The notes below the pieces were generated by a model. It was given only the letters and a program-made list of their open reading frames with translations. It had not been told where the DNA came from and ran no database searches. DNA of 64,000 nucleotides from assembly GCF_003790525.1 (NCBI RefSeq), contig NZ_CP033635.1; one strand, 5' to 3'. This stretch comes from Escherichia coli (lineage in GTDB: Bacteria; Pseudomonadota; Gammaproteobacteria; Enterobacterales; Enterobacteriaceae). The translations under genes and the position numbers were made by a program. Shown here piece after piece: positions 18,940-19,510 of the stretch; the stretch's first letter is position 1; the number at the start of each line of letters is the position of its first letter.

Positions 18940-18964
18940 GTGGCAGGAGGGGACCTCCTGCCAC
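18940..18964 (+). other. Strong 11-bp-stem hairpin between autotransporter and Skp-like gene, with no T-run
   Basis: GTGGCAGGAGG-gga-CCTCCTGCCAC followed by CTCAGGG. Could act as an mRNA stabiliser, processing site or attenuator rather than a terminator. Confidence 0.5.
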
Positions 18965-18979
18965 CTCAGGGTTGTCATA

Positions 18980-19510
18980 ATGAGTTCTGTAATGAAATTT
19001 TCTGTTGTTAATGCAGTAGTGCTGCTGTTGCTGATTGTACTTACTGGTGTTTTTTATATGAAAAAGTCAAAAGAAATTGCAGTTGTTAATATCGATGCTA
19101 TTTATAATCAGTCTGCCGCCGGAGACATGGCCAGAAAACATCTGAATGAGGTTAAGAGTATTCTTGAAAAAGGATATGAGGATGCGCAAAAAGTATTCGC
19201 AGATAACGCGAATAAAGAGGCGCTGCTTCTTGATGCCAGACAAAAACTGGAACGACAATATGTTATTGAGGAAAATAGCGCAAAAATGGTGTTATCCCGT
19301 GCGATAGATAATGCTATAGGCACATGGAGAAAAGACAATCCTAAAAATATTGCCGTATTGTCTTCAGGTGTTGTGCTTGCGCATAACGAGTCAGCTGATA
19401 TCACCAAAGAAGTCATGACTCTGGTTGAAAAAGAAAATCTGGTTTTTAATAAATTACCCAAAGTGGAAGTGCACAATAAGAATGAAGAGAAACCAGAACA
19501 AAGTAAGTAA
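18980..19510 (+). CDS. Skp/OmpH-family periplasmic chaperone paralog with N-terminal hydrophobic anchor or signal
   Basis: 176 aa. EIAVVNIDAIYNQ and NIAVLSSGVVLAHNESADITKEVMTLV align with the Skp N- and C-terminal beta-strands (KIAIVNMGSLFQQ and [28 protein letters not shown]). A charged coiled-coil middle matches the Skp tentacles. Confidence 0.7.
   Translation: MSSVMKFSVVNAVVLLLLIVLTGVFYMKKSKEIAVVNIDAIYNQSAAGDMARKHLNEVKSILEKGYEDAQKVFADNANKEALLLDARQKLERQYVIEENSAKMVLSRAIDNAIGTWRKDNPKNIAVLSSGVVLAHNESADITKEVMTLVEKENLVFNKLPKVEVHNKNEEKPEQSK

Follow-up and report, generated by a model that had tools for sequence, protein, structure and literature searches.

The 64,000-nucleotide (nt) stretch of the Escherichia coli contig NZ_CP033635.1 analysed here (the window) carries upaE, the gene of a giant type Va autotransporter adhesin, and directly downstream of it an open reading frame (ORF) whose 176-residue product is, on the basis of a structure model, a distant and unusual member of the Skp/OmpH fold. 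The ORF and the genes of UpaE-type giant autotransporters are inherited as a fixed two-gene unit. By a modest degree we favour the reading that the product is an inner-membrane-tethered Skp-fold holdase, co-expressed with UpaE as its accessory factor. Three features appear to be undescribed: the partnership with large type Va autotransporters, which is conserved in two phyla, a membrane tether common to the linked members and a conserved intercistronic hairpin.

Predicted fold and family of the ORF product

The upaE stop codon occupies positions 18930–18932 and the ORF starts with the ATG at 18980, leaving 47 bases between the two genes. An initial annotation, made from the DNA letters alone, had placed a 176-residue ORF after the autotransporter stop, behind a hairpin with an 11-bp stem and no T-run, and this arrangement is confirmed. 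Initiation at the first ATG is favoured because the MSSV(M/I)KF start of the protein is conserved and its second methionine is replaced by isoleucine in one homologue. The ORF is under purifying selection (ratio of non-synonymous to synonymous substitution rates, dN/dS, of 0.13–0.39 against homologues) and is intact in 35 of the 36 E. coli-type metagenome copies that are readable to their end. In complete genomes, at least 80% of its length is covered in 250 of the 252 that have a match.

An AlphaFold2 model of the single chain, computed from a 13-sequence alignment, has a mean predicted local distance difference test score (pLDDT) of 82.5, with block means of 85–95 across residues 31–150. It comprises a helix (residues 7–25), a strand (32–36), a helical hairpin (46–72 and 79–119), a second strand (123–128) and a further helix (142–149). 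The predicted architecture is that of the Skp/OmpH fold, in which the terminal β-strands form the body and a long α-helical hairpin forms the arm. Skp/OmpH structures fill the first ten places of the Foldseek search (probability 0.99–1.00), with E. coli Skp (1sg2 and 1u2m), the Caulobacter protein (4kqt) and SkpA of the type 9 secretion translocon (8gl8) among them. SkpA, at 9–12% identity, belongs to another secretion system and another phylum.

At the sequence level, the Pfam OmpH family (PF03938) matches the product with an E-value of 1e-5 and 26.2 bits, under the curated cut-off of 32.4 bits. The homologue from Yersinia ruckeri scores 27.8 bits, the Desulfovibrio-type homologue P0174 lies above the cut-off with 35.7 bits, and PF03938 is precomputed in the database for several near-identical proteins. 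A profile of the subfamily matches solved OmpH proteins at E-values of 0.003–0.006 only. A single-sequence phmmer search against PDB sequences gave nothing meaningful, and an NCBIfam search returned no family for the 176-residue protein. The earlier designation as a Skp-type protein is thus supported by the model and its Foldseek matches. The further designation as a Skp paralog stands at the level of the family and fails at closer range: the pairwise BLASTP match to E. coli Skp covers the first strand motif only and falls short of significance (E = 0.055), the Pfam score does not reach the gathering cut-off, and the product is not a recent copy of E. coli skp. The family assignment itself is not new, because automated RefSeq annotation already gives the OmpH name in many genomes. 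A close variant in CFT073 (WP_000100043.1, 97.7% DNA identity) is called 'OmpH family outer membrane protein', as are the copies in Nissle 1917 and ATCC 25922, and other variants are called 'hypothetical protein' or 'membrane protein'.

The product differs from Skp (HlpA/OmpH), the holdase of the bamA-skp-lpxD cluster, in several respects beyond the lack of significant pairwise similarity. It has a predicted hydrophobic anchor where Skp has a cleaved signal ending in AQA, and its arm is judged to be shorter, the solved OmpH proteins having approximately 16 extra residues in the profile alignment. The K-12 skp gene lies within rseP-bamA-skp-lpxD-fabZ-lpxA, whereas the ORF lies on the mobile argW island after upaE. 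The strongly basic character that is typical of E. coli Skp, although not strictly defining, is absent: the soluble part has an isoelectric point (pI) of 5.99, compared with 9.52 for mature K-12 Skp, and the linked homologues range from 5.3 to 7.1. Near the C terminus there is a subfamily-specific motif, L-x-F-x-x-L-P-K-V, in which 18 sequences, at identities down to 26%, all share P160 and V162 and nearly all share F156 and L159; its core, F-x-x-L-P-x-V, is absent from E. coli Skp, which ends earlier.

Linkage to giant autotransporters

Three probes, consisting of the ORF by itself, the 3'-terminal 1233 bases of upaE and a sequence spanning the two, each matched 252 of 5426 complete E. coli genomes, and each did so at 258 places, 257 chromosomal and one on a plasmid. 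A metagenome scan retrieved only E. coli-type and plasmid-type copies, and is suited to counting adjacency but adds no new diversity; in it the 3' end of upaE precedes the ORF in all 39 contigs, with a gap of 47 nt in 38 and of 46 nt in one. Co-inheritance with the autotransporter in E. coli is borne out by both counts. Adjacency, co-orientation and conservation together with an autotransporter gene, the pattern by which an operon-encoded helper gene of the SadB/TpgA kind would be recognized, are found in E. coli and in other lineages.

The pair, its spacer and the hairpin also occur in Salmonella enterica subsp. diarizonae, behind an integrase and a GerE regulator, and on P1-like IncY phage-plasmids of Escherichia. 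The plasmids have PapB and FaeA/PapI regulators upstream instead of the invertase switch, and a GerE gene downstream; the regulators have been exchanged while the two-gene unit stayed intact. In two such loci (L005, 1–11200; L008, 2795–13183) the pair lies behind divergent FaeA/PapI and PapB genes, not behind the ipuA/ipuS invertible promoter; two distinct phase-variation systems thus seem to be coupled to one adhesin module.

An exhaustive profile search identified 219 relatives at E ≤ 0.001, and genomic context was inspected for a subset of them. Homologues that follow large autotransporters are 30–80% identical to the window protein, and their partners are all at least 1500 residues long. 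P0027 (42% identity) follows an autotransporter of at least 1894 residues at a distance of 57 nt, P0033, on a Y. ruckeri plasmid (33%), follows one of 1675 residues at 24 nt, and P0174 (31%) follows a Pmp-repeat autotransporter of at least 1522 residues with no gap. Relatives found with the P0174-type alignment include one in Desulfovibrio sp. ZJ369 (L026), with a 2038-residue autotransporter upstream, and one in a Desulfovibrio metagenome-assembled genome from the rumen (L020), where the upstream autotransporter gene is broken and a barrel fragment is left. A scan of GTDB genomes with the close alignment found no relatives, and the Desulfovibrio-type alignment did find them. Identity of the autotransporter barrels to that of UpaE is 94, 91, 72 and 24%, and then falls to undetectable, so that the partners are not one family; the accompanying Skp-like proteins are still 30–33% identical.

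The most serious alternative, which we nevertheless regard as unlikely, is that a Skp-fold chaperone is hitch-hiking on a mobile module as a general envelope-fitness gene, for example as a buffer of outer-membrane-protein stress, and is not specific to autotransporters. The same fold evidence would serve this alternative, under which the linkage could be historical, since the E. coli, Salmonella and plasmid copies represent one mobile lineage; UpaE works without the ORF, and several subfamily members stand alone in chromosomes. It accounts poorly for an adjacency that recurs with Yersinia and Desulfovibrio autotransporters whose barrels and passengers show no detectable relationship to UpaE, given that autotransporter genes are rare per genome and repeated chance adjacency is hence unlikely. 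It also sits badly with a P1-like plasmid lineage that changed regulators yet kept the pair and the 47-nt spacer.

Some further copies were noted among the relatives. A block containing the 3' part of the autotransporter gene, the Skp-like gene and a SapC-family gene is common to two Y. ruckeri plasmids at 98% identity (L010, 9917–10372; L009, 6332–7827). One Y. ruckeri copy lies behind a fragmented S6 peptidase (SPATE) gene and is frameshifted after residue 119. The copy on p17Y0159.1 was rejected as an independent case, being a 98% identical duplicate of the p17Y0159.2 region with a frameshifted gene. P0028 (42% identical; L012, 826–1392) occupies an island-like setting that also contains GerE regulators, a PrgH (type III secretion) gene and an SLT lytic transglycosylase, with 826 nt of contig upstream of it.

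Predicted N-terminal membrane tether

The N terminus of the product reaches a Kyte-Doolittle maximum of 2.67 over 19 residues, compared with 1.17 for the signal peptide of Skp, and small residues at positions −1 and −3 are not conserved across orthologues, position −3 being Phe in four of the five full-length ones. By these hydropathy and −1/−3 heuristics the product lacks the cleaved Sec signal peptide of the Skp family, and the long hydrophobic N terminus looks like an uncleaved anchor, as the initial annotation had suggested. The UpaE-type proteins and P0027 share a hydrophobic, transmembrane-like N-terminal helix. The Y. ruckeri protein instead has a lipobox, LLSGC, followed by Asp at +2, which in Enterobacterales is an established signal for avoidance of Lol sorting and retention in the inner membrane. 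In the linked proteins of the Desulfovibrio type the lipobox cysteine is followed by Glu. Every autotransporter-linked homologue is therefore predicted to be membrane-tethered, by either a transmembrane-like N terminus or a lipoprotein signal, and the two non-linked relatives of known context without a lipobox have ordinary AxA signal peptides.

Because some homologues are lipoproteins, and hence exported, the E. coli domain should be periplasmic as well, which favours an N-in, C-out anchor; the product is probably tethered to the inner membrane and faces the periplasm. A KKSK sequence directly after the hydrophobic segment raised the opposite topology, N-out and C-in, which was rejected since the lipoprotein homologues place the domain outside the cytoplasm.

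A cleaved signal peptide, releasing a soluble periplasmic Skp-like trimer that would still be a helper of UpaE but untethered, is rather improbable. Canonical Skp and the non-linked relatives do have cleaved signals, and the window protein offers a possible site after G23 (L-T-G / V). However, the hydrophobic stretch extends over 21 residues with a hydropathy far above that of the Skp signal, the −1/−3 pattern is not conserved, most full-length orthologues have Phe at −3, lysines follow directly, and other linked homologues are lipid-anchored.

Intercistronic hairpin

The hairpin in the spacer has the sequence GTGGCAGGAGG-gga-CCTCCTGCCAC, which pairs in a perfect 11-bp stem. A 61-nt stretch containing it has a minimum free energy (MFE) of −24.3 kcal/mol (z = −2.9), and none of 200 shuffled sequences folds as well. 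Comparison of the window with the Salmonella and plasmid copies, over the 22 stem positions and the other 25 intergenic positions, gave one substitution in 44 stem comparisons and 14 in 50 non-stem comparisons (Fisher p = 5e-4), and the loop varies between copies (GGA, TGT and ATC). A hairpin matching the window stem, with one position left free, is present in 38 of the 39 metagenome copies.

Another locus, L015, has at the same position GUGUGGUAGGG-GAAA-CCCUACCACAC, again with 11 pairs but of different sequence, and the 71-nt stretch around it folds with −24.2 kcal/mol. Relative to the window stem there are two compensatory pairs (C-G to U-A and A-U to G-C), and the helix is two pairs shorter at the top and two pairs longer at the base. 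These changes were read by hand, as RNAalifold on a MAFFT alignment misplaced the 3' arm of L015. On this comparative evidence the hairpin is a conserved structure, and its likeliest roles would be protection of the upaE 3' end or damping of downstream expression. It is a feature of the UpaE lineage, since the Y. ruckeri intergenic gap contains no hairpin and the Desulfovibrio-type locus L007 has no spacer at all (0 nt). A search of 18800–20300 against Rfam at a permissive threshold found no match.

The bases 3' of the hairpin, CTCAGGGTTGTCATA, contain no T-run, and the terminator scan made no call there; a canonical intrinsic terminator was rejected for want of a U-tract. It is quite improbable that the hairpin ends the upaE transcript and leaves the ORF silent, or separately expressed and functionally unrelated to UpaE. 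A stable G+C-rich hairpin right after the stop codon would suit that explanation, as would a weak promoter-like site at 18660–18689 and the treatment of the operon as two genes in the published work on UpaE (PMC6083910). Promoter-like matches are not enriched, with 7 found compared with 5.3 in shuffled sequences. The ORF is co-oriented with upaE at a constant 47 nt in the metagenome copies (46 nt in one), and elsewhere the gap is 0 nt in L007 and 24 nt, without a hairpin, in Y. ruckeri. The purifying selection on the ORF likewise speaks against a silent gene.

Very improbable indeed is a reading of the inverted repeat as the place where a dimeric regulator, for instance IpuR, binds the DNA, rather than as RNA structure: the 11-bp palindrome is perfect, LuxR/GerE proteins bind palindromes and a GerE-type gene is always near the pair, but the arm has no second copy in the 64-kb window, L015 keeps an 11-bp stem of different sequence in a shifted register, which fits selection on pairing and not on a recognition sequence, and the GerE protein of the plasmids is barely related to IpuR (E = 0.005 over 46 residues). 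A repeated regulator site was rejected on the same lack of another copy in the window.

Between E. coli and Salmonella diarizonae (17700–19510 compared with L002), synonymous divergence rises from approximately 0.43 in the barrel to approximately 1.8 in the Skp-like gene, which suggests a possible recombination boundary near the intergenic hairpin.

Proposed function

Classical autotransporters are usually described as needing general factors only, namely Sec, SurA, Skp, DegP, BAM and TAM. In the mechanism that we favour, the ORF would most likely be co-transcribed with upaE from the phase-variable ipuS promoter when this is ON. Transcription would run through or past the hairpin, which may govern how much of one product is made relative to the other, or may protect the upaE mRNA from decay. 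The product would be a divergent Skp/OmpH-fold chaperone, possibly a trimer, that its uncleaved N-terminal helix would keep at the inner membrane on the periplasmic side; in some relatives an N-terminal lipid anchor would take the place of the helix. As a local holdase it could catch the autotransporter polypeptide at the Sec exit, where the ESPR-type signal is thought to keep UpaE attached for a while. It would then keep the polypeptide unfolded and non-aggregated, limiting loss to DegP, until hand-over to soluble chaperones, BAM or TAM. With the switch ON, the expected result would be a higher yield or lower envelope stress, and the product would be an accessory for efficiency or stress buffering rather than an essential factor.

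A number of points weigh against this mechanism. The published work on UpaE calls ipuR-upaE a 'two-gene operon' (PMC6083910). Its pUpaE clone was made with a reverse primer that ends at the upaE stop, and thus carries upaE alone; in K-12 MS427 it produced a 271-kDa band, surface staining, biofilm and binding to extracellular matrix (PMC6083910). In K-12 the interval from argW to dsdC holds only the CPS-53 prophage and the ORF is absent from the locus. The display of UpaE in K-12 without the ORF means that the ORF is not needed when UpaE is over-expressed in a host that has Skp, SurA and DegP, and that any effect of its loss on display is at most partial. A hairpin of −24 kcal/mol between the genes could terminate or attenuate transcription. 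Under the positive-inside rule, the KKSK sequence is awkward for an anchor of N-in, C-out orientation. Neither the near-neutral to acidic soluble domain nor the acidic UpaE passenger (pI 4.6) resembles the basic Skp cage in charge, so that electrostatic capture of clients in the manner of Skp is unlikely to apply unchanged. A cage of the size of Skp is too small for a passenger of 2300 residues. Members of the same subfamily without an adjoining autotransporter (L013, L016, L018, L022 and L023) show that the link marks a part of the subfamily and not all of it. Many large autotransporters of E. coli are not known to have a partner of this kind.

The initial annotation had proposed a dedicated periplasmic holdase for the passenger domain. 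Co-inheritance with the autotransporter is supported; the holdase role itself is purely inferred, and display of UpaE in K-12, where the host's skp is present, does not require the gene. It had also described the gene as an uncharacterised partner at the ipuR-upaE locus, and this agrees with the literature: the published work on UpaE omits the gene and mentions neither a third gene nor Skp nor OmpH (PMC6083910), and a search for papers on Skp-like or OmpH-like proteins together with autotransporters found no description of the pairing.

A close known parallel is SadB, a trimeric lipoprotein of the inner membrane whose gene accompanies that of the trimeric autotransporter SadA (PMC3953254, PMC8151025). 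Both proteins are small and, if the ORF is indeed in an operon with upaE and its product tethered as predicted, both would be operon-linked, inner-membrane-tethered periplasmic proteins that accompany an ESPR-bearing type V adhesin. A review of type V folding describes operon-encoded periplasmic helpers only for trimeric autotransporters, namely SadB and TpgA (PMC8151025), and a 2026 survey likewise gives these two as the only described helpers associated with trimeric autotransporter adhesins. ESPR-mediated retention at the inner membrane could help to recruit SadB, which is helpful and not strictly required (PMC8151025); a helpful, non-essential role is likewise proposed here for the ORF product. 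SadB, however, serves type Vc (trimeric) autotransporters, whereas UpaE is of type Va, and no SadB structure is among the listed fold matches of the ORF product, whose top places are all taken by Skp/OmpH.

A second parallel lies in PpiD and YfgM, which are inner-membrane-anchored periplasmic chaperones at the Sec translocon. The location and task proposed here for the ORF product match theirs, with an N-terminal anchor, a periplasmic chaperone domain and the first contact with polypeptides leaving Sec; their folds are unrelated to that of the ORF product, and they are housekeeping proteins, whereas the ORF is linked to its presumed client.

More tentatively, and as a generalization that we would sooner expect to fail than to hold, the linked proteins may form a distinct, horizontally mobile clade of membrane-tethered Skp-fold chaperones dedicated to giant type Va autotransporters in Enterobacterales and Desulfovibrio, acting at the Sec exit together with ESPR, with the hairpin setting dosage in the UpaE lineage. 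On this reading they would be the first client-linked periplasmic helpers to be described in type Va secretion.

If the holdase function is true, the ORF product would be a client-linked, membrane-tethered helper of a type new to type Va secretion, and a natural system for studying the site and manner of the encounter between a Skp-like cage and a very long polypeptide that emerges from Sec. Studies of UpaE phenotypes in uropathogenic E. coli, Nissle 1917 and ATCC 25922 have treated the locus as a pair of genes. Co-expression of the ORF might help platforms that display very large passengers at the cell surface.

Organization of the locus

Bases 18600–19800 of the window are 100% identical to SMS-3-5 and to many other E. 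coli strains. In the identical region of SMS-3-5 the RefSeq order is dsdC, ipuB, ipuA, a helix-turn-helix regulator (ipuR), upaE, a hypothetical protein, tRNA-Arg and yfdC, and the upaE product is labelled 'phase-variable autotransporter adhesin UpaE'. Pfam domains of UpaE are the ESPR signal extension, PATR and the AC_1 autochaperone. The ipuS switch sits between ipuA and ipuR (PMC6083910).

Table 1. Features of the upaE locus in the window
Feature	Position	Strand	Basis or remark
ipuA, tyrosine invertase	9427–10056	+	ORF list; identical SMS-3-5 region annotated in RefSeq
ipuR, LuxR/GerE-type regulator, first gene of the phase-variable unit	10374–10994	+	ORF list, RefSeq, published work on UpaE
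upaE, type Va autotransporter adhesin of 2637 residues	11019–18932	+	ORF list, RefSeq
Intercistronic hairpin	18940–18964	+	11-bp G+C-rich stem, 3-nt loop, no U-tract
Skp/OmpH-fold gene (predicted), 176 residues	18980–19510	+	WP_000100042.1, RefSeq 'hypothetical protein'
Hydrophobic segment, codons 7–27 (21 residues), predicted uncleaved N-in/C-out anchor	18998–19060	+	Kyte-Doolittle, AlphaFold2
Skp-like domain, codons 31–150	19070–19429	+	AlphaFold2 model, fold matches
C-terminal motif L-x-F-x-x-L-P-K-V, codons 154–162	19439–19465	+	Conserved across 18 sequences
Strongly structured untranslated region 3' of the ORF	19505–19640	+	MFE −44.1 kcal/mol, z = −4.4

The structured region that follows the ORF contains an 11-bp stem, CAGCAGGCCAG/CUGGCUUGCUG, without a T-run, and the terminator scan called no plus-strand terminator within it. 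Farther downstream, approximately 12.7 kb (19941–32710) are inserted in this strain between the ORF and argW, a tRNA-Arg(CCT) gene on the minus strand (32636–32710); in SMS-3-5, strain 165 and CFT073 the tRNA gene lies only approximately 440 nt 3' of the ORF. In matching genomes the inserted DNA is annotated with a P2-family capsid-like protein, an ogr/Delta zinc finger and MazEF/PemK toxin-antitoxin genes, and in the window it has large minus-strand ORFs at 25619–28312 and 31195–32499. The insert looks like a P4-like satellite or an integrative element.

The argW island is also contained in a GenBank record for phage GER2 (L011, MG710528.1, 2691–12775), in which two fragments of upaE bear the name 'long tail fiber proximal subunit' and ipuA is labelled an integrase. 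A phage origin of the ORF, raised by this match, was rejected because the record merely includes the island. In the strain concerned upaE is split, and the Skp-like ORF is intact.

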